64,000 bases of DNA from Lytechinus pictus (taxonomy: Eukaryota): positions 15,812,001 to 15,876,000 of the forward strand of contig NC_087250.1 of NCBI RefSeq assembly GCF_037042905.1. The letters are read 5' to 3'. Every line of letters starts with the position of its first letter. Within the stretch, counting starts at the first letter, position 1. The position numbers and the translations under genes are program-made. Below the pieces are notes generated by a model. The model worked only from the letters and a program-made list of their open reading frames with translations. It searched no databases and was not told the origin of the DNA. Below are positions 2,496 to 62,379 of the stretch, piece by piece.

Positions 2496-5322
2496 CTAGG
2501 AGTGAATTGAAAAATATATAATGATCAACATAATAGAGGGGAAACTGTTATTCCATTTTGGTATAGCGTTTTTTAGTTTGAATAATGATCTGACATTTTA
2601 TGGTTAGATGTACTGTGTTAAAAACAAACATTAGTTTGACAAAGCAAAAATAATAAGTAAATAAACTGGAAATCGGGGGTAACTGGGTTTTAGACTTAAA
2701 GGGATGCTCGGGGATAAAAATATTTATAACTAAATAGAGTCAGATTCACAGAGCAAAATGCTAAAAATTTCATCAAAATCTGATTACAAAGAGCGGAGTT
2801 ATGAAATTTTTAAATTTAGCAATATATTGTGAAAACAGTTACTAGTGTATGCACGTTGTCATGAATATTCATTACATCAGCTGATGATGTCACATCCCCT
2901 CTTTCCTTGCTCTTATTTTATTACATTGAAATCATAATTGTTACATTTTTTCATACATGTGTGAATGATATGTCTTCTTTATTATGAAATAATTTGGAGG
3001 TAATGAATATCTAATGCATTTAATCAGATGTTATTCCAAGATTTTGGTTCTCGAAGGAAAAAACTCTGAATAAATAAACCTAATTTCATATAATAAAATA
3101 CAAAAGAACAAGAGTGAATATGACATCATCAGTTTGCTCATTGAATATTCATGAAGAAATGCCCAGAGAACTGTTGCAGCGGAATAATGCAAATCTTTAA
3201 AATGGCATAACTTTTTTATTCCTCGGCCGATTTTGATCAAATTCTCAGTGATTGAATTGTTTGTCTGATTTTTCTTAATCTGTTCAAATCATATTATTTT
3301 CAGCCTGGAGTACGATACTCATACTGGGCATTATGGCGTGCGCCTGTAATCCAAGCTGCATGACGTAGGGAATTTACAAAGTGCTGGAGACGCTTGAGGT
3401 TCAAGACCTTGTTACGTCTTTCGGATGGTGACGCTTAAGGTCGGTCCCAGACGTAAGTAATCATATCTGATTGATACACGTCTGACAAACTCAATTACAC
3501 ACACACACACACATGTGGCTTTACTACAGGTGAGACCTAGACCAATTGAATGCAGAAGATATACTGTAAACCAAACTAAATTCCCCTAACCCACTGCATT
3601 CTGAAGCTGAATAATCCCTAGCTGTACATAGCCTATGGGAATTAAAGAATTCGGTAGTAAAAAGGGTAAACAAGGCATTTATAAGCGATTTTTGTGTCTC
3701 GCCCACTTATGAAAATAACCAGATATATCGTGATTTGCGAGGGCATGCAAAAAAATTGCATCAAAACTTCATTGTGAAATACAGTGACTGGGATGGAATA
3801 ACATTTGTCATAAAAGACTCTTGCAAAATAAACTTTGACCTTACCATGTAACCTTGTGGAGCCAAGATATGTGCAAACAATGGTATATGTGCAAAATTTC
3901 TCCGGGATTTGTGCAAACGCCACGCCGGGAAGTGTGCAAATCTGTCAAAATTTATCAATGGCACATGTGCAAACGTGACGACGGGATATGTGCAAATGAA
4001 CAATTTTCACGGGAAATGTGCAAACCTCGGGATATGTGCAAATCACTGTTTTTATCAATATTAAGGCTATTTCTCATGAAATGTTTCATAATATTACTGT
4101 TAAAATGAGAAATATGCCTGCATAAGGTAGAATCTACAATGCCATCGGCAATGAAACGCTTTTCAGAGAGGCGGGGGGGCACCAGACTAAAATTTAAAGG
4201 ACACTCAATTTCGAACACTGCCTATGTTATGTACCCTTGCTTTATAACAGTCATAGTTTGGGGTCTTAATTTTGAAGGTTTTTTAATCACCGGTCTGGAG
4301 TAAAGACTACACTCTATATCCATTTTTTTTCACAGGAATGAGACTGTGGGGTCTTTTGTTTAAATAAACGGGTCTGGAGAATTGAGAATACTTTATATAC
4401 ACGTTCTTTATTACAGAGTCTTAGTAGTGGAAGATGGCGGGGCTTTAATAGTTTTGAATTTGTTTAATCACCCGGTCTGGAGTAAAAGACTACACTTTAT
4501 ACTCATCTTTTAGGAATGAGACGGTGGGGTCTTGAATTTGATTTTTTTTAATTATTATTGATATAACAGGGTCTGGGGTAATGACTACATTCTATATTCA
4601 TTTTTACAGGTTCTTAATTTGGTAGACAGTGAGGTGTTGCAGTTTTTAATTATTTTTGAAAGACTATGCTCTTTACTTATGCTTTAGTACAGGATCTTAG
4701 TTTATAAGGATCTTCAAATTGTTAAACAAGGCAAAAGCGATTTTGTGTCTCGCCCACTTATGAAAATAACCAGAAATATCGTGATTTGCGAGGGCACGCA
4801 ACAGAATTGTATTGAAACTTCATTGTGAAATGACTGGGATGGAATTACACTTGTCATAAGAGCCTTGCACGTAAACTTTAATGTTGACCTGAAAATGACC
4901 TTTGAGCTTACCATGTGACCTCCGACTGCAGCATAACATGCAGGTCCCCCAAGTCCATCTACCATCCAAGTTTGGTTGAAAAGTGACTAATGGTTGCGGA
5001 GTTAGGCGGAGTAAGAGAGTCTTGCATGTAAACTTTAACGTTGACCTGAAAATGACCTTTGACCTTACCATGTGACCTCCGACTGCAGCATAATATGCAG
5101 GTCCCTCAAGTCCATCTACCATCCAAGTTTGGTTGAAAAGCGTCTTTTGGTTGTGGAGTTATGTGTCATTAGGTTTGTGCCGGACGGACGACAAGCGGAC
5201 GACAGACGACGGACGACATTTGGATCCCTAAGTCTCGCCTTCACCTCTGGTGGGCGAGACAATAACCGAGTCTGGAGTATTAAAAGACTACACTTTATAT
5301 CCATGTTATTCCAAACGATATA

Positions 5323-5358
<36 letters not shown>

Positions 5359-8300
5359 TATATATCCATTTCACACAATGGTGGGTCTGGAGTACATCTG
5401 TGGGTAAGAGAGTTATTACATTTGACGGCGATCTTTTGTGTGTAATGTGTTATACGTTTCAGGGTGTTATTACATTGTGGGTATAACAACTCTTGCACGA
5501 ATGACCAAAAAAAAATACTCTTGTGTCCCATTTGCCTTGAAAGTGCCTCAGTCAGTGTTCGAAATTGAGTGTCCTTTAAATTTTAGTCTGGTGCCCCCCC
5601 CCCCCCCCCCGCCTCTCTGAAAAGCGTTTCATTGCCGATGGCATTGTAGCTTCTCCCTTATGCAGGCATATTTCTCATTTTAACAGTAATATTATGAAAC
5701 ATTTCATTGGTATTGGTATTGGTGGTGATTTTTTACCTGATTGCTAAGAAAGCATGAATGCTTGTAAGCAAGCAACCAGAGGACCGACGGCTTAAGGTCC
5801 TCTCCGAAGGACCTGGTACTGAGGATTAATGCCTTACCAAAGGGCACTAGCGCACCAAGTGAGAATCAAACCCGGGTCACCGGAATACGAGTCCCCCGCT
5901 CTACCGACTGAGCTATCGCGCCTCCATACAGTAATCATGAGAAATAGCCTTAATCATGAGAAATACATGTAGCCTTGATATTGATAAAAACAGAGATTTG
6001 CACATATCCGAGGTTTGCACATTTCCCGTGAAAATTGTTCATTTGCACATATCCCGTCGTCACGTTTGCACATGTGCCGTTGATAAATTTTGACAGATTT
6101 GCACATTTCCCGGCGTGGCGTTAGCACAAATCCTGGCGAAATTTTGCACATGTACATATGTACCGTTGTTTGCACGTATCTCGGCATTTGCATACAACAC
6201 GGCTCCACAGAACTCCGAACACAATAACATGCAGGTCTCCTAAGTACACCTACCACCCAGTCTAAAAGTGACTCATGGTTGCAGAGTTATGTGTCATACA
6301 TGTAACACTGACCTCAAAATGACCTTTGACCTTACCATGTGACCTCTGATTGCGCCATGACATGAAGGTCTCCTGGTACATCTACAACCCAAGTTCAGGT
6401 GAAAAATGACTTACGGTACGTTGCGGAGTTATGTGTCATAAGAGAGTCTTGCATGAAAACTTTAATGTTGACCTGAAAATGACCTTTGACCTAACCATCT
6501 GACCTCCGACTACAGCCAAACATGCAGGTCCCCTAAGTACATTAACAACCCAAGTTTGGGTGAAAAGTAACTTATGGTTGCAGAGTTATGTGTCATAATG
6601 TTTTTGACGGACGGACAGACGAACGACATTTGGATCCCCAAGTCTCGCCTTCACCTTTGGTGGGCGAGACAAAAATGAGTAATATTAATATGACATTTGA
6701 TCTTGTAACCTCAAAATCTGATCGGACCATTCCCACTCACATATGCAGATATGAGCCAAGTTCGAAAAATTATCTCTCAAACAGTCCATAGGTTATTGCA
6801 AGAAAGAGATATTTTCAGGTATGAATTGACCATTGTGACCTTTGACCTCCAGACTCCTAATTCTAATCATATCATCATGCACACATGAACCAAGTCGGAA
6901 GTTGATCCTTCAAACAGGTCTACATTCATCACAAGAGCAAGATACTTTCAGGTATATCATGACCTCTGTGAACTTTGACCTTTAGCTTTCATACCCCATA
7001 ACTAACTTATCATCGATCACTCTTATATGCATATTTGGAACAAGTTTGAAGAAAAAGGGAATAAAACAATACCCGACATTGGCTCCATGAAAGGCATTCT
7101 TCTCAATGCGGCTGATACGGTTCCCGCTCAAACCCCTAGAAATGAAATTGAAATTTGTAAATAGATAATTCACAAATTTATGAATTACATAAAAATAGAG
7201 GCTACAGAATGAATACTGAAACTAAATTATTCAAGCAATATTCATATTTTGAAAATTAATTTCTCTCATTGTTATTACTATAATGATTGCCATCATCACA
7301 AAAGTAATATCTTTGATACAAATTTAGCTACCTCATTATCACCATCATTAACGGTTCCAAAGTGTAGTAGTATAGAATTCAGTTATTTTCTGCATGGTGA
7401 TGATTAAAAAAAAAGAGGAAGAATAATAATGATGATGATGATGGTGGTGATGGTGGTGATGAAGATTTTGGTAATGGTGAGATAGTAATGGTGATGGTGG
7501 TGATGATGATGCTGAAGATGATGGAGATGATGATGATGGAGATGATGATGGCGATGATGATAATGATGATGGTGAAGATGATGACAACAACAATGATGGT
7601 GAAGATGACGATGGTGAAGAAGATGATAATGATGATGATTATGATGATTATGGTAATGACAAATATGATGATGATGATGATGAAAAAGGAGATGGAGATA
7701 ATGTCAAGCAATAAGAACAGAAAATCTCCCCCCCCCAAAAAAAAAAAAATAATAATAATAATAAAATAAAAATAAAATAAAAATAATACAAAATTAAAAA
7801 CGATGAAAAGAAAATAAACCAATACGGATCTAAAAAATATGGGTCTACTCACAAATTTTGTCCAGCATAGTTCAGAAAAGTCCAAGACCTGATAATACCG
7901 ATTCTGCTTCCTTTAAAGAGGCTGAAAATTCAACATATGAAGCACAATTTCAATGATACCGGAGACGAGAAGAAAAATCCATATTTTATTTGTAAAAGTT
8001 AAATCTGAATATAGAAATACTCTGAAATTTTTTTTTTCCCAATAAGCCTGTTCACGGTTGTAAACTGCGCACGAGCAGAAAAAGGTCATTGGAGACAACC
8101 ATGAAGGTGGCTTTCAAATTCACTGACATAGGCATTTGTGATTTGATGATTATTCATGTATTCCTTTCAAAATATTTATCACATCCAAGCTGAAGAGTAA
8201 TAAATAGAGCCTTCATAATCACTGGTATTTGACAGAAGCCTAAACAATATTCAAATGTGCCAAAGGCAGACAATAAAACAGATTTCCAAACTTTATCCCT

Positions 8301-11300
8301 AATGTACTATTCCATAGTCACCTGGTCTATACAATGCCTTTTGTTCTTAGAATTTGAATACTCTACCGGTAAAGCTTACGCAACATCTACATTTGAAAAT
8401 GATAGTGCTTATCCTAATGAAAAATCACAAAGGTCATTTGAGAAAAGTTGATCTTGAGCTAACCGTGAACTGGTTTATTGATCGTGGGCCCGGCAGCCAC
8501 TGTGCAGCCCCAGATCAACACAGCTCTATCCCTTGAATTGTCGAATGCCAATTAAGTAGGGCAGCAGCTCGGAATGCCACTTGGTGTCCTCCTAAGACCC
8601 TGAAATCTTTTTTTGCGGGCAGGGTCAGTGTCCAAGGCAGTGGTGACTCTTACCCATCCTGAGACCAGCCAGATCCCCTAGACAATCGCATTGTTTTGGT
8701 TCTTCATTTTTATTTTTGTTTGTGTGTGTGTTTTTCTAATGTGGCTTCTTACCTCGTTGTGATCAATGACTTTGAAGACAAGGTTTGAAAGACTGACGGT
8801 AGTTGTTGGGTGCTGCTTCTAGCATGCACGCCTGCTTTTCTGATGAACATCTTTTGTTACATGTTCACGCAAACACTTTTTGCCAGCTGAAGCATACTTC
8901 AGTTGCTTGTTGCACCAAATACACAAAGCAACACCTGGTAGGTTTATCTTGTGAAAATATTCTGACATAAAATCTCCATTGTTATCTTTATCCTCCATCC
9001 ATGACCAGTTCCATTTGTTCTTAATGTTTAGTTTGAATGCCATATGAATAAACTCCCTGCAGACATAGTTAACTCATTATCCTTCAAAAATAAATTAAAT
9101 ATCAATCAATACCTTGAGCCACTCAACACGTAGCATGCTCTGCAAGCATGATGTGCCAATCCTGGTATATTGCTTACTGAACCATACAGATACAGAATGA
9201 TATTGTCCGTCCTCTCTATCACTTTCGCATTCATCTTAGCTTTTTATATCCAGTGCAGTGGCAGAGAATCATAATCTAAAGACTTTGGTGATGGTGGTCA
9301 CTAGTATTTTACCACAAATATATCAAATTCAATAGAGAAGTTTGATGATAGTTCACAAAATATATCCAGTTAGAACAAGGCATAAGCTATGTTGTGTCTC
9401 GCCCACTTGTGAGAGTAACTAGAAATATTGTGATTTGCGAGGGCACGCAACAGAATGGTATCAAATGTTCATTGTAAAATAACTGGGATGGAATAACATT
9501 TGTCATATGAGTCTTACACATAAACTTTAATGTTGACCTCAAAATGACCTTTGACCTTACCATGTGACCTCTGAACACAATAACATGAAGGTACATGTAT
9601 CCTAAGTATCACTACATGTACAACCCAAGTTTGGTTCAAAAGTGACTTACGGTTGCAGAGCTATGTCATAACAATGACCTCAAAATGACCTTTGACTTAC
9701 CATGTTACCTCTGACTGCGCATTGATATGCAGGTCTCCTTAGTACATCTACAACTCAAGAGTCTTGCATGTAAACTTTAACGTTGACCTGAAAATGACCT
9801 TTGAGCTTACCATGTGACCTCCGACTGCAGCATAACATGCAGGTCCCCCTAACTTCATCTACCATCTAAGTTTGGTTGAAAAGTGACTTACGGTTGCATA
9901 GTTATGTGTCATAAGAGAGTCTTGCATGTAAACTTTAACGTTGACCTGAAAATGATTTTTGACCTTACCGTGTGACCTCCGACTGCAGCATAACATGCAG
10001 GTCCCCGAAGTCCATCTACCATCTAGGTTTGGTTGAAAAAATACTTACGGTTGGAGTTAGGTATCATAAGAGAGTCTTGCATGTAAACTTTCACGTTGAC
10101 CTGCATGGAAACTTTAATGTTGACCTGAAAATGACCTTTGACCTGACCATATGACCTTCGACTGCAGCATAAGATGCAGGTCCCCCAAGTCCATCTACCA
10201 TCCAAGTTTGGTTGAAGAGCGACTTACGGTTGTGGAGTAATGTGTCATTAGGTTTGTGACGGACGGACGACATTTGGATCCCTAAGTCTCGCCTTCACCT
10301 CTGGTGGGCGAGACAAAAATCAATTAAAATGAAAATCTAAAATTATACTTAAAATAAACAGTCCTGCAGCAAAAAGAAAGGGGAGAATTGGGAGAGATGC
10401 GGAGCACTAATGTATGATTTAAGAGATTACATGCATACAATTTGGACATGTCTTCATACTGTGCACTATATACGTAGACAAACTCTAAACAATCACAGTG
10501 CGGAACACAATGTGAACATGTCTTCACACTGTGCACTATATACAGTATGTAGACAAAGTCTGAACAATCAAAGTGTGGAACACAATGTGAACATGTCTTC
10601 ATACTGTGCACTATATACAGTATGTAGACAAAGTCTGAACAATCACATGTCTTAATACTGTACACTATATATGTAGACCAAGTCTGAACAATCAGTGTGG
10701 TACACAATGTGAACATGTCTTCATACTGTGTACTATATACAGTATGTAGACAAAGTCTGAAAAATCAAAGTGTGGAACACAATGTGAACATGCCTTCATA
10801 CTGTGGACTATATACAGTATGTAGACAAAGTCTGAAAAATAAAAAGTATGGAACACAATGTGAAAATGTCTTCATACCGAGTACTACATACGTAAACAGT
10901 CTGAACAATCAGTGTGGAACGCAAAGGCCTAAATTCACAAAGGTGGTTTTTAAAACCATTGCTTGAACCCTTTGTTTATTCAGATTTCCTGTATAAATTA
11001 CACTTATTTTACCGCGTATATTGAAAAATGTCCAATATGCTGATGCACCCTTTTGTCACAGTGCGCCAAATTGATGCCTGCATGTTGTCATGGTTAAGCA
11101 CGCTATTTTATTCATTAGTCCACTGTTTGAAGAGTGGACTCACAAAACAATGGACTCATGAATAATCACTGCAACAGGCATCTATTTGGTGCACTGTGAC
11201 GAAAGCGCGCATCAGCATTGGATGTTTTTTTATATATGCAGTAGAGAAGCCGTATTTACACAGGAAATCTGCATAAATCATGGGTTCAACTAATTTTTAA

Positions 11301-14300
11301 AAACCACCTTTGTGCACTACAGGGGTATGTAGATAGCCTGTTTAATTTGAGCACCTTGACAATGTAAATATCATACCTTCAAAATAATGTGAACAGCCAC
11401 CCGAAAAAAAAAATAATAATTAGCTCACCCCCTTCTGATCTCTCCTGCCGTTTGCGCGATCGCACCAAAATTTGGCACGCACATTTGTTACCACATAAAC
11501 TACAAGCCAGTATAACACAATTCAAAAAAATATTTATTTCTTATGAATAAAACATGCAAATTTACTTATGTAAAAAACATTATATGCATATCTAACAACC
11601 AATTTCACTTCAATATTTTTTCTTTTTATCCAGATGTCTTTTTAATCTAATTCTAAAGGTTTCCACAAAGAAAAATTGCAAAACCAATTTTTCCTTATGT
11701 ATTTACTTTTTTTTAGAATTTCTTATGTATTTGCTTTCTCATCTTCTGTTTTTCATTGTTTATTCATTGGAAACTATTACAGACCATTTAACAACTAAAT
11801 TAAACCCTAAATTAATGAAGCAAACCAATTAGAACGAAAAATAATCACCCTTTAATGAATTTCATCTCCCATAGACTTTGTACACAAAGTATAAAAATAA
11901 GCCATTTTGGGCTTCACTTAGTCTCGTAAAAAGTCATGTGGCGTCGGGATGCTATACCCGTATATTACGAATTTGGTCTCAAAAGTTGTGCGAGACTTCC
12001 CAAAAAAAAGTAATAAAATATCGCTCCGCTATCCGTATGCATTTTGGAAATATCGCGCGAAGCGTTGGGGGGCCATCATACCCCCCCCCTAGTCCTCTTA
12101 GGGTTAACTACTTGTGAGTTATTGTTGATCAATATTGAAGAGTAATATATCATTTTAAATCTTAGTTTGTGCTTTTTTACAATAAATAGAAATCTCAAAA
12201 CTTGTTTTGGGCATTCACCGTTTGTTCTGGGTGTTCACAAATATCGTATCCATTGACCAGGGGCCCGTTGCAGAAAGAGTCACGTTTAAACGCAAGCCAA
12301 AAAATCAATCGCATGTCCAAAATGCGCGCTGTTGATTGGTTGAAAATCAAGTTGCGTGTGATTTTTAGATCGAGTTGCAATTGATTGCAACTCTTTCTGC
12401 AATGGGCCCCTGGCCACGGAGGATTATCTATTATTCCGAGGATGCTTTGACAATGCTCAGCTCCCCCGGTAACAAAAGCATAAACCTCTGTGGCCAGGAC
12501 CCTGATAATATCTTAAATTTGCCCAGTGTATGTGTGTACTATCCTATGAGACACTGCATTTTTTTCAAGCATGTGTATACATACGCATAGTCCATCTTGG
12601 TTTGTTGCAGGTCTGGAAATGGGAGCTCTATCAATCGATTGTTGTACACATAGATGGTCCAATAATAATGTTTTGAAAATGTCCCTGGTTCGATGTAGGT
12701 GAGATCATTATAGCCCATGTCGGTGTAGCCCAAGACTGTGTCTCTGAAAATATCCTTTGGTAAATACGTTATATCACCTCCAAAGAGTTGGCTGTATGGT
12801 AGATCAAGCAAAGAAAATTGTTGTGCCAGTGCAAGAACACCCTTAGCAAAATATTTTCGCATTGGTGCAGAAACGCCCTTTAATACGCAATTACACGATG
12901 CTAAAGACACTTCTGCACCTATGCATAAGGGTGCAGTGTTAAGGGGGCTGACAAAGATTGAAAAGCAATATAAGACACGTCACCGCATTGGTCAAAGCAA
13001 GCACAGGGGAACCACACTCAATATTAATCAATGGGGTTACCCGTTAGGTGCATGTGTTGGTCCATTCAAGTGGGAAGCGTTTCACAATTGTCAGAAGTTT
13101 TATCTGACAAGTCCTGTTTTATCCAACAGTTACTATATATGCCTCTCAGCCAATCAGAATTAAGGAAAGTTGTCAGATCTGACTTGTCAGACAAAAATGT
13201 TGATAAAGTAAACACTTTTGCGAAATACCCCCATTAGTTGATTGTAAGAGAGAGATAGAGACAGACAGAGAAAAAGAGAGAGGGGTGAATATGGTAGAGG
13301 TAACGGCCCGTATTCTGAAGTCGGGTTTAATTTAAACTCAGGTTTAAAGTTGTGGTTTAAGTATGGGAAGCCAAAAGTATCAAAATTTTTATTAAGTTGT
13401 ATGTTTCTTATGTTTACTGTGCTCTTTCCTGATTCATCGATGGTGAAGACAATAATCTATTCATATTTCCTAGACAATTATGAATGATTTGAGAGCCAAA
13501 TGAGCTGAAGTATGATATCTCTACTGTTAGTGATTTATGTAACAATTGGCTGTCCATACTTAAACCACAACTTTAAACCCGAGTTTAAACTCATTTGGCG
13601 GAGGGGGGTATCTGAATTTCAAAAAAGAAAATCATGTCTAAAACGTTCAATATCTGCTCTTTTATTTGATAACTTAATCACAGAAAATTGTCAAGAAGTA
13701 AAAAAGTTATGTTCCCTCGAAACAATGCTTGTATTTCCATAATTTCATTAAATAAACGCGTTTTCACCGGTTTCCCACAGAAGCTATCGCACAGTTAACA
13801 AAGACTTAATGCATGACTGATCGTCAACAAAACGGGGGATCGAGTGAGCCTGAACGCTAGGCTGTAAAAGCTCTTTATTTTATGAAATGATTGAAATTTA
13901 AGTCTTATTTCAACTAACCAGAACTTTGTTACTTCTTGACCACTTTTTTTAATTGAGGTATCAAATTAAATAGCAGATATTGAACTTTTTTCAAATGTGG
14001 TTTTCTTTTTGAAACCCAGATACAGCCTGCCAAGTGACTTTTTGGTATCCCCTCTTCAAATTATTTTTGCTCACTCATGCGTGAATGAGAAATAATCAAA
14101 GTAATGTCAGATGAAAGAGGAGGTTCTAAGCTTTACAATGGTAGGTAATTTGTCTATAGTTTTTTATGATTAAGTTATGATAACTCATCACTAAATCTCA
14201 GTTTCGTTTTCTGTGGGACGCACTGTATAGGCAAATTAAGGTAAGGATAAATTCTAAACCCAAAATAACGGTTGGTAACGAACAAGGTAAACAACGTTAT

Positions 14301-17300: not shown

Positions 17301-20300
17301 CCAGAGGATACAAAGCGCTGTTGATGGCATATGACAAGTTAAGGTTTATGGTTATATAAGTGCGTTATAGGTCTATTATCTAACAAAATACATGTACCGG
17401 TATACAAACAAATACATGTATGTATGATTGATTTTAAAATGAATTCTTCATGTAGAATACAGTGTATACAAATGATAAACAAAAACATGGATTGTAAAAT
17501 GATGCTCTTTCTAAATGGAAAGTACATTAGATTAACATCTTACGACCTAGTTTTAAATAGTCATATATACATGTCTTCCAATATTCAAACAGAACATTTG
17601 AATTTCACGAACTATGCATACATTTTCTCTGTGGATGGTGGAAACACGTTGTTTTCAACCGTTATGATGTCGTTGTTTGAGAGATCAAACTCCCTGACAG
17701 TATCAAGTGGTGTGAATGCCCCCCTTTTCAGATACACAAGTTTATTCCCTTCAAATTGCCTGCAAAAAGAGAAAGAGATTGACAAATTAAGTAGTTTAAA
17801 AGTAATATTCATATGAAATTCTGTCTTTGCCTTAATTTATGATATACTTTAATATCAACACAATCAACATAAATGTTATTGCGAAAGAATGTAATTTCGG
17901 TATAATACTCTGACTACCATGTATGAAAAATATCAGACGTACATGTAAATCTTTCACTCACTGTTAATTAATATTCATAAGTGGACCTATGAAGAAATGA
18001 TTGGTCAGTTAGTGCTCGTGCAAATTTTCACTGTATTTTCAACAAGAATGCACAATTATGCCTCAGATAAAATAATCAACAAATGTTGGAGATGTCAGAG
18101 AGTCTCACACACACCAAACACATATGTATAAGGCATCCCTCGTGAAGTAAATTAGGCCTGTGCCATCAGGTCATCATGACTGGTAAGGCAATCGTGTAGC
18201 CTGACAATTTGAGAAAAGGGCCATTAGTTGCCAAAGGGTCGGGTTCAGTTTAACCGACCCTTGATATCTTTATAGTGGCTGATGAATTTCACAAAATATG
18301 AGTAAATTGTACCCAAATATTCAAATATTTGACTGGTAGGTACAACAAATCTTCGGGTAGAATTTGACCGGATATTTTGGGAATTTAGCGGCCCCTCTTC
18401 TTGAATGGTCAGGTTATGGGATTGCCCAACCAGAGGTGATCCCGTGCAATGATGGAACAAGCACGAGGTAAAGGGTCAAACAGCGTGCAGTGCCTGAACG
18501 AAATTGAACCACAATCAATGCACAACAATGAACAAGAACATCAAGATTTATCTTCAAACCTTAGGGATATATCTTTTTGGATTTCAACTGCTTTGGGTCG
18601 GTCTGAACAATGGACTCATTCGGGTCTATGGATTCTGTAAGCAATGGGCCAATCACGGAGCGACATTGATTGTGAAATCGACCCTTTGCAACCGCGACCT
18701 CGCAAGGCATACCGTTCCATCACTAAAAAAATGATGGACAAAACAAAATCAAAGTCATACAAATAAGATAAACGGAGCTGCATCGGGTCACATGATGCAG
18801 TTTTGACTAATCGGTTATTAGTGATAATCTTTGTAATACGAGATGTGTAAAATTTATTTCTTACACTATGTCCAGGCTTTGTAGGTGTCCTGCAACAAAG
18901 GCCTCCGGTACCAACTTAATATTGTTATATGCTAAGTTCCTGGAAAAGGTAAATAAAGAGAGAGACAACAATTCATATTTGGAAGAATGATTTAACACAG
19001 GTAACAGACTGCCAGCATCATCAAGCAAATACGAACTAGCAGAATTATACCCCTTTCATATTGCGCTTTTCACCGGCGAAGTTCGCCAGCGAAGGGGAAA
19101 GTGTCCAGTATGAAAGGTACACAGGAGAACTTCACCGGTGAAGTTCGCCGGCGAACTTCTCCACCTCTAGAGGTGTAGAACTTCGCCGGCGAAACTGTTT
19201 CACCGGCGAAGTTCGCCGATGAAAAGGCCAGTATGAAAGCAACCCGGAGAACTTCTCCTCTTTAATGACGTCAGAGGTCAATTTTTTTCTCTCCCGAACT
19301 CCCCTGTACCGAGATTCCGCGCGCGATAGTTGCAAGCTCAGCTGAATGCTATGGCCAAGTAGATACAGTACCCTCGAACATAATTTTTTTTTAATACTAA
19401 CAATATTTATCAAAAAGCACTTTTTACATGAATAAAATGCGCTAAAATATAAAAACAAAGTGATATTGTTTGTTTTTCTCATAATACTTACCAAATATTT
19501 TGTAATTAATTTTTTTATACCTTTTTGTAATAGGTAAGAAGTAATGTTTACAATTTTCTTTCGTTTGTTCTGCACGTGCCGAGCACTGACTAAATCAAGG
19601 GAATACTGACACTGTTTACTAGATCTGGCCGTCATCTTGACAACTTTACTAACAAGTTAGATCTACACAAAGGAAATAAATAATCGTGGTGCCGCGGAAA
19701 TGCAGAATGAGGCCAATCGCCCGTTGACTTTCGCCGGAGAAGAAATGTCAGTGCGAAAGGTACATTTTTTTCTTCGCCGGGGAAGTGAGGAATGCGAGGC
19801 AGAGAAGTTCGCCGGTGAAAAATGAAGAGGGCAGTATGAAAGGGGTATTAATAGCACAACTTCAAGTACTCAACTAGACAAATCTGGCAAGGTTTCTATT
19901 TACCCATAATGCAACATTCTGAGGAGTGCATTCTCGTTGTACAAGCCTATTTGAATGATAAAACACTATTTCCTTATTTATTGCCTCCATACTACAATTA
20001 TAATGTTACATGTAGCTTACAAAATAAGGACTTTTCCTCTCAAAAACATTAATTAATTTATCTTTAAGAAAAATATTACGATGACTTGCTTTAGTATCTG
20101 TATTATAGGATATAGTTTCCACAGGTGGGGAGCACTCGCAATCATTGGTGGACCCCGTCTTTCAGACCTCAAGACCCTTTCTCAAAAAAATATACAGTAC
20201 GCATGATAAAAGATTCTTTCAGACGCCACCTGGCCCCGCTCACAAGACCCCCGTTACGAAACATCTCCATTCCTCAGGCCAGCCAAAATTGTCAAGAGCG

Positions 20301-29300: not shown

Positions 29301-32300
29301 ATGCCTTTCTTCCAGGAACAAAAATCGAGAAATCAGAAATCGGTCAATGTGCGTAGGCACTTTAGAATCCAGGTGCTCACATCATTTTTTTGTTCTTTGG
29401 CTCATAACCTCATAATGGTCTTTTTTTCCCACTTACTGCTATTTAAAAAAATGGTGAGAAAATTTAAAGAAGCTTGATAAAGTCCTATCTACTGGAAGGC
29501 AAATATATACAAGTTACTTACAAGGTTCTTATCTTCTGTCCAGCATTATAGAAAGCAGAATATGAAATTGACGTCAGATCGAATCCAACCTTTTGTGAAT
29601 GAAGACGTCTAAGATTTAATAATGAACAAAAAATATACATAATTAAAGTTTTCCCCTGAATAAAAAAAATACTAGCTGGATCTACATGTATAGATTGCTT
29701 TTGCCTGTATTAAATTTATTGCCTGTATGGATGTCATCCAACAATTCAGCTACTGTTAATGGTTTTCAAGTCCTGGGTGATTCCTGCTTTTCTGTCCTAC
29801 ATATTTGCAATTTTGATTACAGCATTGGCTGCATCGGAAAAAACACCAACCAAGTTGTAAATTCCAAGACTGACAACTACAGTGGGATCTCTAAGAGCTC
29901 AGTCGTAGACTGACAACTACCGAGGGATCTCTCTGAGCTCAGTCGTAGACTGAAAACTACAGAGGGATCTCTCTGAGCTCAGTCGTAGACTGAAAACTAC
30001 CGAGGGATCTCTCAGAGCTCAGTCGTAGACTGAAAACTACCGAGGGATCTCTCTGAGCTCAGTCGTAGACTGAAAACTACCGAGGGATCTCTCAGAGCTC
30101 AGTCGTTGACTGACAACTACAGAGGGATCTCTCTGAGCTCAGTCGTAGACTGAAAACTACCGAGGGATCTCTCAGAGCTCAGTCGTAGACTGACATCTAC
30201 CGAGGGATATCTCAGAGCTCAGTCGTAGACTGAAAACTACCGAGGGACCTCTCAGAGATCAGTCGTAGACTGACAACTACCGAGGGATCTCTCAGAGCTC
30301 AGTCATAGACTGACAACAACTGAGGGATCTCTCAGAGCTCAGTCGTAGACTGAAAACTACTGAGGGATCTCTCAGAGCTCAGTCGTAGACTGAAAACTAC
30401 TGAGGGATCTCTCTGAGCTCAGTTGTAGACTGAAAACTACAGAGGGATCTCTCTGAGCTCAGTCGTAGACTGAAAACTACCGAGGGATCTCTCAGAGCTC
30501 AGTCGTAGACTGAAAACTACCGAGGGATCTCTCTGAGCTCAGTCGTAAACTGAAAACTACAGAGGGATCTCTCAGAGATCAGTCGTAGACTGACAACTAC
30601 AGAGGGATCTCTCAGAGCTCAGTCGTAGACTGACAACTACAGAGGGATCTCTCAGAGATCAGTCGTAGACTGAAAACTACTGAGGGATCTCTCTGAGCTC
30701 AGTCGTAGACTGACAACTACTGAGGGATCTCTCAGAGCTCAGTCGTAGACTGAAAACTACTGAGGGATCTCTCAGAGCTCAGTCGTAGACTGAAAACTAC
30801 TGAGGGATCTCTCTGAGCTCAGTCGTAGACTGACAACTACAGAGGGATCTCTCTGAGATCAGTCGTAGACTGACAACTACAGAGGGATCTCTCAGAGCTC
30901 AGTCGTAGACTGACAACTACAGAGGGATCTCTCAGAGATCAGTCGTAGACTGAAAACTACTGAGGGATCTCTCTGAGCTCAGTTGTAGACTGACAACTAC
31001 TGAGGGATCTCTCAGAGCTCAGTCGTAGACTGAAAACTACTGAGGGATCTCTCAGAGCTCAGTCGTAGACTGAAAACTACTGAGGGATCTCTCAGAGCTC
31101 AGTCGTAGACTGAAAACTACTGAGGGATCTCTCTGAGCTCAGTAGTAGACTGACAACTACAGAGGGATCTCTCAGAGATCAGTCGTAGACTGAAAACTAC
31201 TGAGGGATCTCTCTGAGCTCAGTCGTAGACTGACAACTACTGAGGGATCTCTCAGAGCTCAGTCGTAGACTGACAACTACTGAGGGATCTCTCAGAGCTC
31301 AGTCGTAGACTGAAAACTACTGAGGGATCTCTCAGAGCTCAGTCGTAGACTGAAAACTACTGAGGGATCTCTCAGAGCTCGGTCGTAGACTGACAACAAC
31401 TGAGGGATCTCTCAGAGCTCAGTCGTAGACTGAAAACTACTGAGGGATCTCTCAGAGCTCAGTCGTAGACTGAAAACTACTGAGGGATCTCTCTGAGCTC
31501 AGTTGTAGACTGAAAACTACAGAGGGATCTCTCTGAGCTCAGTCGTAGACTGAAAACTACCGAGGGATCTCTCAGAGCTCAGTCGTAGACTGAAAACTAC
31601 CGAGGGATCTCTCTGAGCTAAGTCGTAAACTGAAAACTACAGAGGGATCTCTCAGAGATCAGTCGTAGACTGACAACTACAGAGGGATCTCTCAGAGCTC
31701 AGTCGTAGACTGACAACTACAGAGGGATCTCTCAGAGCTCAGTCGTAGACTGAAAACTACTGAGGGATCTCTCTGAGCTCAGTAGTAGACTGACAACTAC
31801 AGAGGGATCTCTCTGAGATCAGTCGTAGACTGACAACTACAGAGGGATCTCTCAGAGCTCAGTCGTAGACTGACAACTACAGAGGGATCTCTCAGAGATC
31901 AGTCGTAGACTGAAAACTACTGAGGGATCTCTCTGAGCTCAGTTGTAGACTGACAACTACTGAGGGATCTCTCAGAGCTCAGTCGTAGACTGAAAACTAC
32001 TGAGGGATCTCTCAGAGCTCAGTCGTAGACTGAAAACTACTGAGGGATCTCTCAGAGCTCAGTCGTAGACTGAAAACTACTGAGGGATCTCTCTGAGCTC
32101 AGTAGTAGACTGACAACTACAGAGGGATCTCTCAGAGATCAGTCGTAGACTGAAAACTACTGAGGGATCTCTCTGAGCTCAGTCGTAGACTGACAACTAC
32201 TGAGGGATCTCTCAGAGCTCAGTCGTAGACTGACAACTACTGAGGGATCTCTCAGAGCTCAGTCGTAGACTGAAAACTACTGAGGGATCTCTCAGAGCTC

Positions 32301-35300
32301 AGTCGTAGACTGAAAACTACTGAGGGATCTCTCAGAGCTCAGTCGTAGACTGAAAACTACTGAGGGATCTCTCAGAGCTCAGTCGTAGACTGAAAGCTAC
32401 TGAGGGATCTCTCTGAGCTCAGTCGTAGACTGAAAGCTACTGAGGGATCTCTCAGAGCTCAGTCGTGGACTGAAAACTACTGAGGGATCTCTCTGAGCTC
32501 AGTCGTAGACTGAAAACTACTGAGGGATCTCTCAGAGCTCAGTCGTAGACTGAAAACTACTGAGGGATCTCTCTGAGCTCAGTCATAGACTGAAAACTAC
32601 TGAGGGATCTCTCTGAGCTCAGTCGTAGACTGAAAACTACTGAGGGATCTCTCTGAGCTCAGTCGTAGACTGACAACTACCGAGGGATCTCACAGAGCTC
32701 AGTCGTAGACTGACAACTACCGAGGGATCTCACAGAGCTCAGTCGTAGACTGACAACTACCGAGGGATCTCACAGAGCTCAGTCGTAGACTGACAACTAC
32801 CGAGGGATCTCTCAGAGCTCAGTCATAGACTGACAACTACTGAGGGATCTCAGAGAGCTCAGTCGTAGACTGACAACTACCGAGGGATCTCACAGAGCTC
32901 AGTCGTAGACTGACAACTACCGAGGGATCTCTCACAGCTCAGTCGTAGACTGACAACTACCGAGGGATCTCTCACAGCTCAGTCGTAGACTGACAACTAC
33001 CGAGGGATCTCTCAGAGCTCAGTTGTAGCTAAGACTTATAAAAGAATGATCGTAAACCATATCAGACCCTTCATAGATCCACTACTAAGAGACTCTCAGA
33101 ATTGCTTCCGACGGGAACGATCAACTATACTGTAGGTCAAATCCTTGCAATTAGGAGGATACTTGAAGGACTGAGGGATTAGAGCCTTTCTATAATTATC
33201 ACTTTCATTGATTTCAAGATTTCATTGATTTTACATGAAATCATGATTACATGTATTTCATATGTAAATACATGTACGTATATGACTCCCTTTTAATTAA
33301 ATAAGTTGCAGCAATGAATATCTAATGCATTAAATCAGTTGTATCAAATCTTTTTAATTCTTGGAGGACAAAATTTGAATAAACCTAATTTCACATAATA
33401 AAATACAAAAATAAACAAGTGAGAATACGACATCGTCAATTTACTCATGGAATGAAGACAAGCACAGAACTGTTTCACCAAAATCATGCAAATCTTTAAA
33501 ATGTCATAAATTTTTTTATCCATGTCCAATTTTGATCAAATTTTTCAGTGTCTTGTTTGTGTAATTTTTCTCTATCAATTCAAATCATATTATTTTCAGC
33601 CTGGAGTACCCCTTTAACAGGTTGTTATACTTACAGTGTGAGAAGATTTGGTAGATCAGTAAATGTCCTTGGTAGGAGAACACTCAGTTTATTGGTGTTC
33701 AAATCCCTGCATGCAAACATAGAAGACATAAGTTGGATAAAATGCCCTTTCCAAGCTTATGGATGCTAGAAAATTATTTAACCGTGACATTAAGAATAAT
33801 AACTACATTTATTATCATTATTATTAGTTTTATTGTAAGATTTTACCCATTGTATTTTTGTTGTCCTTTTATCGACCTAGCGCTTTGTAACTTTTGAAAA
33901 GCACTTTATAAGCAGCAAATACTGATTATTATCATCTATATAGAGCATTTTAACAAAGCATTAAAAATGCATATTTCGGTCTGTATTAATTGCCTGTGCA
34001 GTATTAGAGCGTATCCCTAAAAAGGACCAAAATCCGAGAAATTACAACGCCTACTTAGCTTGTTGCACGCGAGCAAACAGGAGGCTGAATGCCAAACATT
34101 TGTACCATTGCACAAAATACGTACCATCCAAAATGTACCGTTGCACGGCTTTAGGTGACGTCACAATATCCAAATAATGCACATAAGCGCGTGCATGCAG
34201 GGCCAAATAATGAACGATGTGCGAGAAGAGCCAATGGCTATAATACCGCACCGAGGTCCGCAGGACCGAGTGCGGTATATCCATTTGGCGTGTCGAGCAC
34301 AAGTTCATTTTTTCGGTCCTCTATGCACAAGAATGCGTGTATTGTTTGTTTTATATAACCCCTCCCCCTCACCCATGTTACTGAGTTGCCCTAAATGATA
34401 TATTTGATCTAAATTCTAGTTAATTCTAGATAATTCCAGAACTCGTACTACCCTGCACTCTGACGTCAGAGTGCAGGATAGTACTTTTGGTATGACGTCA
34501 GAGTGCAGGATAGTGCATTTTGGATGCAATAGTGCAATTCGCTGAATATCATGTGATCCGATTTGGACCAATCTGATTACAAAACATTCTTGGGAGTTGT
34601 ATAATACGATTTAATTTATTGCGCTCAGTAAAAATGAAGGTGCAATGCGCGTATAAGCCTGCTGGCTAAATGCGCAATGCTGCCCCAAGGTCATGTGCGC
34701 TTGTGGTATTTTGCTTTTCGCTTTCAATTTTTGTGCTCCCTTGTCATAGATTACTACAGGGATAAACTCTTGTTTTTTCATATTTTCGCTAAATTCCGAG
34801 GCGTTGTACAACATAAATAGCAAATATTCTTATTTGTGCGATGGTGCGAGATTTTGCATTCGGTGAAAGAAAGAAACGCTCTATTCAACTCGGCTAACGC
34901 CTCGTTGAATAGAGTATCTTTCTTTCGCCTCGTGCAAAATCTCGCACCATCGCACTCATGCCTATTTGTATACTATTGACTATGAAACCATATTCAACAG
35001 TCTAGTGCGCATGCGTGAATACGTGAAATATACAACGCATACAACAATGAAAATAATGCAATGCGCAGCATAGAGCACAATGACACTCAATGACGTCATA
35101 ATTAATTACACATATTAAAGTCGCATGTTAACAACAAAATTGATCCTAATAAAGTGATGACGCCATAAGTGATATGACTTTATCGTTCAAATTTCTCCCT
35201 CTTCGAGGGGGGGTGGGATAGATAATAATTATTATATTGGATGGCTTTATTTCATGGAATAACAGAAATATTCCAATCGTCGGGGCCAATATTCCACTCA

Positions 35301-42500: not shown

Positions 42501-45500
42501 TAGGTTAAGTTAAACTGAAGTTATCACGTTTACAAGGACTGCAGAAGGGTAAGATGAAAACATGTCACTGTGACCTTGACCTTTGACCTTTTGACCTCAA
42601 AATCAAGAGGCTTCCTGGGATCCATGATAGTATCCTACATACAAAATTATATGAGCCTAGGTTAACTTAAATTGATGTTATCTCGTTTACAAGGAAAAGT
42701 TAACGGACGGACGGACACCGAGCGTGATACCATAATACGTCCCGTCGAGATGGGCGTATAAAAAGTAGGAGCTGATCAAAGGAGCGCAGAAGGGGAGGGC
42801 CATGCATGCCCATAGCATACAAACCTCGTTGTTAGCGTGAGAGGGCCATGCTTAGCTTACCTATTTTTCTATACTCTTATACGTTTAATTATGGAGTGAC
42901 AAGGACAAAAGAGTTGTTACTGAGACTCCTATGAAACAAACAAAAATGAAAAAACCAGGAGCTCAAGAAATGAGCGCAGAAGGGGAGGGGGCCAGGCTTG
43001 CCCTATTTTTTTAAAAACATTTTATACTTTTACTTATAATTATGGAATGAAAAGCACCTAAAAGTTGTCGTTACTCTGACTCCTATATACATAAAATGGG
43101 GGGAAAATATCAGCAAATGAGCAGAAAATAACTGAAATTAGCAAACTTGACCGTCTATATCGATTGAATGTTCTATGATTTTAACAAGCACCAAAAGTTG
43201 TTTCTGAGACTCCTATGAAACAAAAAAAAAACCTAAAAACAGAGCAAAAGAAAACAATGGCTGGATTGAAAGAGTGTAGAATTAGAGGAGGGGCTTGGCC
43301 TATTTTTTTTTCAAACGTATCGTACTTTTAAATTATGGAATAACAAGCACCAAAAAGCTGTTTTATGACAATAAGCCTGTTCACGGTTGTAAACTGCGCA
43401 CAAGCAGAAAAAGGTCATTTGAGATAAACCATGAAGGTGGCTTTCAAATTCACTGACATAGGCATTTGTGATTTAATGATTATTCATGTATTCCTTTCAG
43501 AATATTCATTTTATCACATCCAAGCTGAAGAGTAATAAATAGAGCCTTCATAATCACTGGTATTTGACAGTAGCCTAAACAATAGTCAAATGTGCCAAAG
43601 GCAGACAATAGAACAGATTTCCAAACTTTATCCCTGATGTACTATTCTAGTCACCTGGTCTATACAATGCCTTTTGTTTTTAGAATTTGAATACTCTACC
43701 GGTAAAGCTTACGCAACATCTACATTTGAAAATGATAGTGCTTATCCTAATGAAAAATCACAAAGGTCATTTGAGAAAAGTTGATCATGAGCTAACCGTG
43801 AACTGGCTTATTATTCACTGCGTATCTCCAACCCCCTACCCCACCTCTCATCAATTTAAAGGACAAGCCCACCCCCACAAAAAGTTGATTTGAAAAAACA
43901 AGCATAATGCTGACAATTTCATCAAAAACGGATGTAAAATAAGAAAGTTATGACATTCTTTAAGTTCACTCAATTTCTCAAAACAGTTATATGCACATCC
44001 TGATTGGTATGCAAATGAGGGGACAGATGATATCACTCACACACAATTTCTTTTGTATTTCATTATATGAAATATGACTTTTTTTTTCTCCCCATGGTCA
44101 TGTGAAAGTTTTATTCCTCCCTGAACATGTAAAAGTACTATATGGTTCAGTCAAGTTGGTCATTATTGTCAAATCTGTAAAAATTGAAGTAATATTGCAT
44201 AATTCAAAAAATAAAAAACAAAATAAATGAGTAATGGACATCATCAATTGCCTCATTTGCATGTCACTGAGTTGTGCATATCACTGTTTTGTGAAAAATA
44301 GGCGAAAATTTAAAATATCATAACTTTCTTATTTTACATCAGATTTTGATGAAATTTTCAGCATTAAGCTAGTTTGATTTTTCTCTATTGATTCATATCA
44401 ACATTTTTCTGGGGTGGATTTGACCTTAAAGAATTCCTAGTCCCGGTGAGACAACAACAAAAATTAATTGATGGTGACAATTTTGTAATGACAGTGATCA
44501 ATAATTATTTCAGTGATGAGGAATGATAAATAGCTATAAGCTACAAAATGGTTTGGTGAATTCCCCTTATAATCAAATTTATCAATATTCTAATGTTAAG
44601 GGTGGGAAGAGCAAATTAATATTGGCTTTACTGTTCCTTGATGTATAGGTGGCAATAACATGTGGGAAATATAAATGTTTCCCTTTATGCCTGTATTTTC
44701 ATTTGCACTGCACTGGAAATAAATAATAACAATAATAATATTCAACAACCATTGCTGGATAATTCCAAGTAACAATTATTACCATTTAATCCTTGCATAG
44801 CGCATATCTCACGCGACAGAATATAAGAAAGAAAGGTAGAGATTGATAAATCAAGAAATAAATTGTTTAGAATTAGAATAATTGAATAAATAAACAGAGA
44901 AAATTGTCAAAGAAGTTGGACAGAGGGGTGGAATCTACACGTGACATGAATTAACATCAAAATATAAATGAATTGGGCTGTCATGAGGAATAGCGGAAAG
45001 AGAATACTCACAAAAGCTCAATCGATGTTCCCCAGAAAAACTTTCTCGGTAAGATGGTCAATGAATTGCTATTTAGGTTTCTAGAATTTAAAAAAAATAC
45101 AAAATTTGGGGCATTTAATATCATTCTTATTTATCAGTATAGTCAAGGCATTAGAGTAAAGCAATATGACATTTGGGAACAGGTTTCAATTTGCGATGTT
45201 AGTAACATTGAAGGCACCCCATATTTTCACAATGTAAATGCAAGAGCAAGCAGCACAAAAACCACATGCTTGTCGCACATTGTGAATACCAGGCCCGGTT
45301 GCCATTTTTCATTGTCCATTACAAGCTAAATTACGCTCCCATAAATAATTAATAAACTTGGCTAATATTTTACATGTCTTTGATTAACACCTTGAGGGTG
45401 CTGCTTTGCCCTTATTACAGTCACTCCTGTGCATACTTTGTGACAGTGGCAGATCGGGGGGGGGGGGGGCAAATCTGGACTACCCTTGGCCCTCCCCCCC

Positions 45501-48500
45501 CCCCTTGAGAGGCACAAAACATATCTTTTAGTGAAATATGCAGGGATGCCACTAGGTGTCCTCCAAAAATACTGAAACTTATCGCGGGCCGGGATGCGGG
45601 GATAGTGTCCAAGAATTTTTTTTTTTGGGGGGGTCCACCTTTAATTTTGGGATGGACACATGTCACAGGTAAAAAATTGGACAAGCAAAAAAAAAAAAAA
45701 AAAAAAAAAAAATGGAGGTGGGGGGTCCGCCCCCACCTTAAATTTAGGGGAGGGGGGAGGACCAAGTGGCTTCTTACCTTGTTGTGATCGATGACTTTGA
45801 AGTCAATTAGGTTTGAAAAACTGACGGTAGTTAGTTGTGTGTTTCTCATAGAACGCTAGACCAAAAGCTTCAGTCTCTGTATTTTGGTTGTTCAGCTGAA
45901 CCGAGTTAGCTCCACTCACCAATACATAGACTGAAGAGTTGTTGGCCCGTACATAAAGACAACGTATCAGCTCACCCAGGGCTAGCTGATACGTAACCCA
46001 AGGAGCTCCGGCCCGCTTTCCGGGCCGGAGCTCCCTGGGTTCCGTATCAGCATGCAGCAGTAACGTTAGATCTAACATTCGGCGGAAACCCGATTTTCGG
46101 ATCGTTTTTGGTACATAAAATGTCACATTATAAAAAAATAATCACATCCAAACTTACGAAAAAATATATAAAATTCAGAAACATCGTACCTTACACCGTA
46201 GTTACCGCTAATTCCTTTCAAATGATGATCAAAACTTAGTCATCCTCGAATCCTTCGTTGGACATCGTAAGTTGCCATCTTGGATGACGTCATCATATTT
46301 ACAGACGTATTTACCAGTCGCTATTATACCGCGATTCGTGCCGCTACTTTGCGCTTGTGTATGTGCGTGCGTTCGGAACTTGTCGCTCGCATTGATTGGC
46401 CAGGATATCGATAATTCTAATCAGAAAGCCTTGATAAAAGCATAACTCAATGAACGTAGTAGGCAGTGCGCGCGTTTATAAATTATGTACTGTATAAAAG
46501 CAAATATCTCGGGGAAACATCTCTCACTCGGTCGATCGACATGCATCGCAATCGGGAGAGATAGGGGGGAAAAAGGAGGACTTTCCCGTTTTTTTAATAC
46601 ACAGAAAACAGGAAAAGTCGGAAATACGGAAATAAGACAGATAGCAGGAAAAAAGCCGGAATTCCGTATAAATACGGAAAAGTGGCATCCCTGAATATGT
46701 CATGCATGGGCAAGTGAGGACCTTTTTTTTCCTTGTCAAATTGTTCATGGATCAAAATGACATCGATTTGGATCCACCCATAATTTGTAATATGTACCAT
46801 TCAAGAAATCAATTGAGCAATGGCCTTTAAATGTTCAAAAACGAATCCAGCCCATGCCATGGTAGTTTGAATACAAAGCTTTAAAAAAAGTGAGCTTCAG
46901 TTGATGTAATGCCATTCATTAACAATAATGCACTCATCAACTACTTGTGCAATACAATTCATGCAAATGGACATAACTCGGGAATATATCTCCAGTATCC
47001 CGTGACACAATAATTACTCACAGATTTTTCAGACTCGGAGGGAAAGCTGCAAATGGTTCTGTTGGAGTGTACACAAGGTGATTTCTTGAAAAGTCACTGA
47101 AATAAAAGCAAAATTATTTAGAGTAATCTTTGATGAGCTTTAAATCCTCAAATTGGCATCATTGATATATTATGTCTTATGTGGAGGAACAGTGGCCGAG
47201 AGGTCCAAGGCCCCTGACTAGACACATGGAAGTCTGGGTTCCGATCCCTGGCCACACCACCTATGCCTGTGAGCAAGGTATTTAAAGGTCAAGTCCAGCC
47301 CAGAAAAATGTTGGTTTGAATAAACAGAGACATTTTAAAGTTTTGCTTATTTTCTCAAAACAGTTATATGCACTAATCAGTGACATGCAAATGAGAGAGT
47401 CAATGATGTCCATCACTCACTATTTCTTTTGTTTTTTATTGCTTGAATTATACAATATTTCAATTTTTACAGATTTGGCAATAAGGACCAACTTGACTGA
47501 ACCATAACATGTTAAAACAATGGTAATACCACATGTTCAGGGAGGAATAAAACTTTGTTTCACAGGACAACAGGGAGAAAATTGGAATATTCCATATTTC
47601 ATATAATAAACTACAAAATAAATAGTGAGTGATTGATGTCATCAGTCCCCTCATTTGCATACTGACCAGGATGTGAATATAACTGTTTTGTGAAATTCAG
47701 CGAAACTTTAAAATTTCATAACTTTCTTATTTTATATCCAATTTTGATGAAATTTTCAGTGCTATGCTTGTTAGATTTTTCTCTTTTTGTTGAGGTGGAC
47801 TTGTCCTTTAATAATGCATTACTGTAAAGCTCTTAGAGACTACTGATGAAGTGTTATTACCCAACAGTGCTCTTTTATCCAACATTAAAATAAATGGAAA
47901 TGCATTCTTGGTAAATATGTGTGCCCTTGTTTAAAAAGGATCGTCTCTATCGTTAGGCAAAAGAACAGAGTCAAGAATAGGTGGAGATTTATTTCGATAA
48001 ATGCGAACAAGATTAAAACTTGACAATTCTAGTAATAACAGAAGTTTTGGTATTTCCAAAAAATATCAACTTTTTTACCTACACCCCTTTTTAATGAGAG
48101 TGCCCCACCCCTTTTTATTACACCTCTTTGTAATGACAGTGACTACAAAGGTTATACAAAAATTATTTCTTTTACTTTAAGCCTACATGTAATGACAGTG
48201 CCCCTGCCTTCCCCCCCCCCCCCCACACACACACAAATAATACAAATATTATTACTTTTACTTTGTACACTGCCTTGTTACAGTGCCTTCCCCCTTTGGA
48301 CTTATGCCTCCTTGTAATGAAAATGCCCCCCCCCCCCCGGATCAAACAGTGATAACATTCACTTACGCCTCTATCAGTTCAGTGCAGGCAGTTACTGGTG
48401 GAATCTTGGTTATGTCACTATTGTGTATGATTCTATGCAATGAAAAACGGGGAAATAGAATACATGTAAGCATTCTGATATTTATATAAGTGCAATTATG

Positions 48501-61410: not shown

Positions 61411-61820
61411 TGTCCGTTTTTTTGACACACTGTGGGCATTGAGAGCTGTTAATAGTGTACAAGGAGTTCCTTATACTGTAAATTTTTAGCTTTTTGAAAG
61501 TTTAGAAATCATTCCTCACATTGCCCACAATGTGAACACAGCTTTAACACAATGTTGGCAATGTGCCGAGAAATCACTGCCTTTGGACAATGGACAACAT
61601 CTGCAAGAAGGGGGTCAATTCACGAATTCATGAATTACACTATGATTAAAAAGCAAATCACACAATTACAGTATTGTATCAAAACTTCAGTATACTTGCA
61701 AGATATATCTCATGATTTTTTTTTCAAATGAAATATGAAATAATTTGATCATTTCATTTCATTAAAAACGTAACTGGAGCAGAGTAGATTCGGGACCAAA
61801 AAGTATATGTAAACCAAATC

Positions 61821-62361: not shown

Positions 62362-62379
62362 ATAAAAATCAAAGGTAAA

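Follow-up and report, generated by a model that had tools for sequence, protein, structure and literature searches.

A repeated short interspersed element in a sea-urchin genome with a probable 7SL-derived head on the body of a tRNA-headed element

The window analysed here is a stretch of 64 000 nucleotides from the sea urchin Lytechinus pictus (contig NC_087250.1, positions 15 812 001 to 15 876 000 of the forward strand). At 3323–3513 it carries a short interspersed element (SINE) in which the 5′ end of 7SL RNA, the signal recognition particle (SRP) RNA, has probably been joined to the B box, core and tail of a SINE whose relatives have tRNA-type heads. The letters and coordinates of this copy match those of an earlier note on the same DNA, which had described an Alu-like element. 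The parts of the element, its neighbour and its relatives are the following.

3323–3513 (191 bp), plus strand: copy of the probable 7SL-headed chimeric SINE
3323–3366, plus strand: 7SL-like head, the 5′ module of an Alu domain, decayed in the window copy; positions 1–44 of the Rfam Metazoa_SRP model
3328–3337, plus strand: position of the 7SL A box (7SL nucleotides 6–15 in PMC7245038, mapped through the Rfam alignment), putatively functional
3345–3349, plus strand: conserved motif, single-stranded, that separates the two hairpins of the Alu domain (model positions 23–27), identical to the model
3367–3397, plus strand: variable linker, likely from a tRNA-headed donor SINE; it contains what the earlier note took for a second block of 7SL
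3398–3408, plus strand: RNA polymerase III (Pol III) B box, likely tRNA-derived, starting 18 nt before the core
3409–3447, plus strand: short core that resembles the Nin/Deu domain at its 5′ start, matched by eye to published Nin SINEs
3448–3484, plus strand: predicted 3′ stem-loop, a candidate recognition signal for a partner long interspersed element (LINE); fold z −3.9, 0 of 200 shuffles as good
3485–3513, plus strand: 3′ end, with an (AC)n tail at 3497–3513
2696–3313, no strand assigned: flanking repeat resembling a miniature inverted-repeat transposable element (MITE), its last 8 bases missing beside the SINE head
L001 615–775, L002 565–775 and L003 170–372, in marine metagenome contigs: tRNA-headed SINE relatives with the same core, hairpin and tail

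A repeated family in three organisms

The region 3240–3660 was aligned at 80% likeness, with 3486–3522 skipped as repeat, to four of 24 listed sequencing runs. These come from three organisms: X2 (contigs) and X21 (raw RNA reads) from organism A, X10 from B and X16 from C. In the run search small shares (0.07–0.13) were recorded for 20 of the 24 listed runs; no run reached half, and no RNA run was among the holders listed. Contigs are not equivalent to copies, and summed contig depths are not copy numbers and are not used as such.

Head and body are present many times in all four aligned runs, and they are joined. A single contig, X16 record 9, covers 3325–3481, about 140 raw X21 reads span 3359–3368, and 13 of the 15 joints among those listed connect head with body. 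The majority letters of the body are found in at least 112–126 contigs of X2 and X10, those of the head in 47–65. Just before 3323, 47 X10 contigs exit the element into unrelated flanks (agreement 0.38), and this break places the start of the family at position 1 of the SRP model. Thus 3323–3513 is one old or divergent member of a repeated family of short elements in three organisms. The earlier note had taken the element to be repeated, and this is what we find.

The window copy differs from the X21 majority at 16 or more of 163 positions, aside from short deletions, and is therefore an old or divergent member; it is probably dead or weakened. Its right flank (3525–3599) has zero depth in all four runs, so that these yielded neither the window locus itself nor an empty site. 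One contig record, X2 record 17, has its left flank in common with the window locus and may be an orthologous copy. In all four runs loose ends behind 3313 continue into the missing end of the MITE-like repeat. The X21 RNA reads lie about equally on both strands with no common start or end, and have no bearing on a Pol III transcript.

Origin of the head, the B box and the body

In the Rfam alignment the head is identical to the metazoan SRP RNA model at 28 of the first 36 model positions, with one inserted base; identities and hairpin pairs were counted by hand on this alignment. The binomial probability of such identity is about 5e-9 at a fixed place with 30% background, and about 1e-4 once the place of the gap, the offset and the choice of RNA are generously allowed for. 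The loop bases are identical to the model, as is the inter-hairpin motif at 3345–3349, which we take to have a part in SRP9/14 binding. The majority letters of the family bring the head closer to 7SL. At 3330 and 3333 the letter is G in nearly all reads and contigs (contig counts 47 and 53 for X2, 53 and 65 for X10, 11 and 13 for X16), and at 3358 it is A in most contigs of X2, X10 and X16; all three are model letters. With these the head agrees with the model at 31 of 36 positions, and six of eight pairs form in the first hairpin, against five of eight in the window copy. Thus the 7SL-like head of the earlier note is supported over 3323–3366, with a weak Rfam score, but a continuation of the likeness to a B box of Alu/FLAM type, as the note had it, is not.

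Behind the head, the element is built like a tRNA-headed SINE. Searching with a body motif gave three loci in marine metagenome contigs and none in viral or genome contigs. All three match the body and tail of the window element at 83–91%, while their heads are unlike its head, 500–760 of 1000 shuffles scoring equally well. The head swap proposed in the earlier note, onto a body common to tRNA-headed SINEs, is supported. When scored against box consensus sequences, L002 and L003 each show a perfect tRNA-type A box, whereas that of L001 is imperfect. There are two head types and two tail types among the three loci; L002 has a 20-base internal duplication, and L003 a 9-base duplication in the loop of the hairpin.

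The core had been said to resemble that of a tRNA-headed SINE elsewhere in the window, and it does: 3416–3447 agrees with 5781–5812 (minus strand) in 27 of 34 columns, a likeness equalled by 2 of 2000 shuffles. By eye it resembles about the first 32 nt of the Nin/Deu domain rather than the full domain, and the motif is matched, again by eye, in Nin SINEs of Lottia and Littorina, in BivaMD-SINE1, in HaSE1 and in the 5S-headed HaSE3. In BivaMD-SINE1 it sits after the Meta part, and it is missing from BivaMeta-SINE1. Of the Meta/Nin-type body suggested earlier there remains the start of a Nin/Deu domain; judged by eye, the core is not a Meta domain, which in MetaSINEs is 66 bp long and follows a tRNA head. 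The predicted 3′ hairpin recurs in the relatives (fold z −4.3 in L001, −2.0 in L002 and −2.2 in L003), with 50 of 52 cells paired across the four close sequences and no covariation. Fold z values of the whole element (−1.7) and the core (−1.4) are uninformative. L001 has the same tail type as the window element, and L002 and L003 have (ACCA)n. The B box and the CA-type tail of the earlier note are both present, the latter as (AC)n.

We consider this anatomy, and the origin of the head from 7SL, to be probable. On the simplest reading of the sequences the junction would fall at about element position 45–50, with 7SL ahead of it and a tRNA-headed SINE behind. The head would descend from the 7SL of the host, and the architecture and the taxon together point to an independent origin. 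A template switch or recombination could have exchanged the front of a tRNA-derived SINE for the 5′ end of 7SL and so created the hybrid. Pol III would then read a hybrid promoter, composed of the 7SL A box and the tRNA B box. The 5′ module would fold like an Alu domain, bind SRP9/14 and carry the RNA to ribosomes. The reverse transcriptase of a partner LINE would recognise the 3′ hairpin and prime at the (AC)n tail. We infer the transcription, the binding of SRP9/14 and the LINE partner. In human cells SRP9/14 is bound by a 46-nt 5′ Alu domain, which is enough for a single round of retrotransposition; lacking a B box, it does not go on to another (Moldovan et al., PMC11760393). The sea-urchin family would correspond to such a module plus a borrowed B box. 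Given the anatomy and the 7SL origin, we lean towards a real role for SRP9/14.

The same anatomy would result if a one-off template switch had put a piece of 7SL on an active SINE that then spread through the A box alone, without any role for SRP9/14; only the mechanism differs. Any Pol III A box could serve, and HaSE3 offers an example of a related core behind a 5S head (PMC3272025, PMC5786205). Moreover, the commonest X21 form has a shortened second loop. Yet the length that is kept is that of the minimal SRP9/14-binding domain, not the 15 bases that an A box needs, and the inter-hairpin motif and loop bases are still those of the model. Spread of the head as an inert passenger seems the less likely of the two.

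How far does 7SL extend into the element? The earlier note read 3383–3398 as a second 7SL block and the B box as that of Alu/FLAM. In that case 7SL would have given about the first 86 bases, the B box included, and another SINE the core and tail alone. In favour of this, and against a B box from a tRNA donor, the B box starts at element position 76, and that of human 7SL occupies 76–86 (PMC7245038). The window sequence at 3383–3398 resembles the 7SL stretch given in the note, and C at 3384 survives in a single contig of X16 and in a minority of the reads of X21. However, Rfam aligns nothing well past model position 44. The family has seven majority substitutions and several short deletions in 3359–3397; the majority differs from the window at 3381, 3384, 3387, 3391, 3393 and 3395, and in the region of 3383–3398 it looks like the beginning of the B box repeated in tandem. 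Depth subtraction indicates, indirectly, that X2 record 17 too carries letters other than those of the window at 3384 and 3391, which suggests that some of the 7SL likeness at 3383–3398 arose within the window copy.

The B box starts 18 nt ahead of the core both in the window element and in all three of L001, L002 and L003. The linker motif TACAAA (3375–3380) is present again in L003, about as far from the B box, and the letters that follow it there also agree with the family majority; ACAAA is found in L002. Because of the common offset, and of a linker motif present in two relatives, the B box likely came from a tRNA-SINE donor, and to judge by these sequences so did the linker. The spacing from A box to B box is 67–69 nt in L002 and L003, and since this is similar to that of the window element the start at position 76 may be just promoter geometry. 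Nor is there a 3′ 7SL part, because many pairs are broken in the Rfam alignment to the 3′ end of SRP RNA and this alignment covers core sequence common to the tRNA-headed loci. An extension of 7SL through the B box is thus improbable, and neither the second block nor the Alu/FLAM B box is supported.

A further alternative is a chance likeness to 7SL, the head being a drifted tRNA head or that of some other Pol III RNA. The weak Rfam E-values and poor folding of the window copy would fit this, as would the tRNA-SINE character of the remainder of the element. But the 28 identities in 36 positions start at the first base of the family, and the majority letters shift towards 7SL. No tRNA is called on the head by either ARAGORN or Rfam, and the best tRNA-type A box within it has two mismatches. 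We regard a chance likeness as very unlikely. Pattern scans with the head motif gave no matches in viral, genome or metagenome contigs; a 16-base head motif occurred at 31 viral loci, none extending past 20 bases, and these were treated as chance.

A number of observations nevertheless weigh against a 7SL head exchanged onto a tRNA-SINE. Rfam scores 3323–3366 at 10.2 bits (E 1.2), and other scans at 13.4 bits (E 0.6–2.4; 4227 families), far under the gathering score of 70, and the SRP match is not listed in the Rfam scan of the whole window at E ≤ 10. Energy-based folding does not bring the head of the window copy into Alu-domain hairpins (z +0.7). Echinoderm 7SL was not found in the viral, genome and metagenome collections or by literature search. 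Within X21 most reads keep G at 3358, and most have a 2-base deletion at 3359 that leaves a shorter second loop. The X21 head depth is about one-tenth of the body depth; many body copies may be without the 7SL-like head, or head reads may fail the 80% limit. The relatives L001–L003 have no tRNA or SRP match in Rfam, the tRNA nature of their heads being based on box motifs, and, as they derive from marine metagenome contigs, they show no tRNA-headed sister in the genome of the window. Finally, two marks of retroposition to which the earlier note had pointed were not seen: there is no target-site duplication of 5 bases or more at the window copy, and no partner LINE matching the element in the window, including the LINE at 62366–63998.

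The 64-kb window has no second copy of the element, as a single-copy accident or contamination by a primate Alu would predict, but this explanation is refuted by the joined head and body in all four runs of three organisms, and contamination is further opposed by the lack of a 7SL 3′ part and of poly(A) and by surrounding repeats that are present in the same runs.

Comparison with known elements

A 7SL head on the 3′ part of an older tRNA-derived SINE is also the design of SINE1-1_EBu (Ebu1-1) of the hagfish Eptatretus burgeri (Kojima 2020, PMC7245038). Both elements are microsatellite-tailed and both lie outside Euarchontoglires. Ebu1-1 keeps 96 nt of the 7SL 5′ end together with the 3′ end, that is, the whole Alu domain with its own B box, whereas the urchin element has about 44 nt of the 5′ end only. 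Ebu1-1 has a bipartite RTE tail and target duplications of about 17 bp, neither of which is seen in the urchin element. Conversely, the latter differs in its likely tRNA-derived B box, its Nin/Deu-like core and its invertebrate host. With Alu, FLAM, B1, Tu and the shrew-mole Urop (PMC13023118) the urchin element has in common a 5′ Alu-domain sequence from the first base and the form of a Pol III-type retroposon. Those elements consist of 7SL from which the centre has been deleted, end in poly(A) and are driven by L1, whereas the urchin element is without a 3′ 7SL part or poly(A). The nearest precedent for a hybrid head is a Tu unit of tree shrews that may stem from both 7SL and tRNA (via PMC13023118).

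Exchange of heads is also seen in HaSE3 and HaSE1 of Helicoverpa armigera (PMC3272025, with sequences in PMC5786205), where a non-tRNA Pol III head (5S, in HaSE3) was swapped onto a tRNA-SINE body with a similar core motif. They differ in the 5S rather than 7SL head, the RTE-derived tail and the insect host (PMC3272025). The Nin/Deu/Inv-domain SINEs of Lottia and Littorina, BivaMD-SINE1 and the sea-urchin SINE2-3_SP (PMC4758252, PMC4824008, PMC5804259) have the first ~32 nt of the core motif in common with the element. Those examined have tRNA heads, and the rest of their Nin domain is missing from the urchin element; SINE2-3_SP and most Repbase urchin families lay outside this comparison. The minimal Alu domain SA46/AY46 (PMC11760393) is the same 5′ module as the urchin head and of the same length. 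It is, however, engineered, driven by an outside promoter and studied in human cells, whereas the urchin family is natural and its B box would come from a tRNA-SINE.

How should the element be classified? It is short (<1 kb), interspersed and non-tandem, as in the SINEBase definition (PMC3531059), being 191 bp long with 47 unrelated 5′ flanks in one run. The same source asks that 60 nt or more match tRNA, 5S or 7SL at 60% identity or above, and here the 7SL likeness, which extends over about 44 nt, is by itself too short; exceptions are allowed where Pol III transcription is shown (PMC3531059). In the broad sense of SINE1 (PMC7245038) its 5′ end is 7SL-derived, as judged against the Rfam metazoan model alone and with a weak E-value. 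It does not have 5′ and 3′ 7SL joined over a central deletion, as in Alu, FLAM, B1, Urop and Ebu1-1, and in place of the poly(A) tail of Alu, FLAM, B1 and Urop it has (AC)n. Because it lacks the two joined ends and falls short of the 60-nt rule, we class it among chimeric SINEs with a 7SL head rather than with the Alu-type elements.

In the papers cited, which extend to 2026, 7SL-derived SINEs are called exceptional and ascribed to supraprimates, shrew moles and hagfish only, all with both 7SL ends (PMC13023118, PMC7245038, PMC10886601). We found no report of an invertebrate 7SL-headed SINE in the literature, with subscription journals and Repbase Reports outside our coverage, and the family may be present in Repbase, Dfam or the SINEBase supplements under another label. 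We tentatively propose that this is the first invertebrate lineage of 7SL-derived SINEs, with a new architecture, present in several sea-urchin species and undescribed in print or in the repeat databases. In it a minimal SRP9/14-binding module would serve as a plug-in head that targets a tRNA-SINE to ribosomes, the Pol III promoter being a hybrid and the tail that of a stringent (non-L1) LINE. Such a family would be the natural counterpart of the engineered 46-nt Alu domain. If true, this would be a fourth origin of 7SL-derived SINEs and the first outside vertebrates in the literature searched, and the central-deletion route would not be the only one. It also makes testable whether ribosome targeting by SRP9/14 helps a SINE that has a LINE-type 3′ signal instead of poly(A), with tRNA-headed elements of the same body as the comparison.

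Other features of the window

The tRNA-headed SINE at 5700–5929 (minus strand) has only the short core motif in common with the element at 3323–3513. Rfam matches 5851–5921 to tRNA at 19.1 bits (E 2). Between its B box and the Nin/Deu-like motif there are about 40 extra bases, presumably CORE-like, and the whole is inserted in another repeat, its flanks matching 4060–4093. MITE-like repeats at 2696–3313, 33231–33617, 43856–44319 and 47329–47811, with TTAA and purine-rich termini, are very abundant in all four runs. Long minisatellite arrays lie at 29867–33028, 469–1765, 49171–51168 and 60491–61415, with periods of about 40, 220, 49–98 and 198 bases, respectively. ARAGORN calls no genes in the window. 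MicroRNAs of the mir-2013 family are known from sea urchins; a weak Rfam match to it at 34446–34515 (plus strand; 26.9 bits, E 0.27, gathering score 70) is probably due to chance.

Exons of a gene for a leucine-rich repeat protein lie at 12542–12979 and 17615–17836, both on the minus strand. A first protein search at near length gave no match. The exon at about 12540–12800 (minus strand) is 85% identical over 78 residues to an LRRC15-like protein of Lytechinus variegatus, the second part being nearly identical, and was the sole match among 136 candidates; it confirms the echinoderm host surmised in the earlier note. A stretch at 8822–9073 (minus strand) resembles a BED zinc finger (Pfam E 6e-4) and lies near repeats that recur at 38744 and 43361; it is possibly the remnant of a DNA transposon. 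At the end of the window there is a fragment of a LINE open reading frame 2 (62366–63998, plus strand) that changes frame near 62850 and runs off the window end. Its reverse transcriptase domain at 62844–63998 (Pfam RVT_1, E 4e-40) was the one strong match among 129 of the 161 listed frames.
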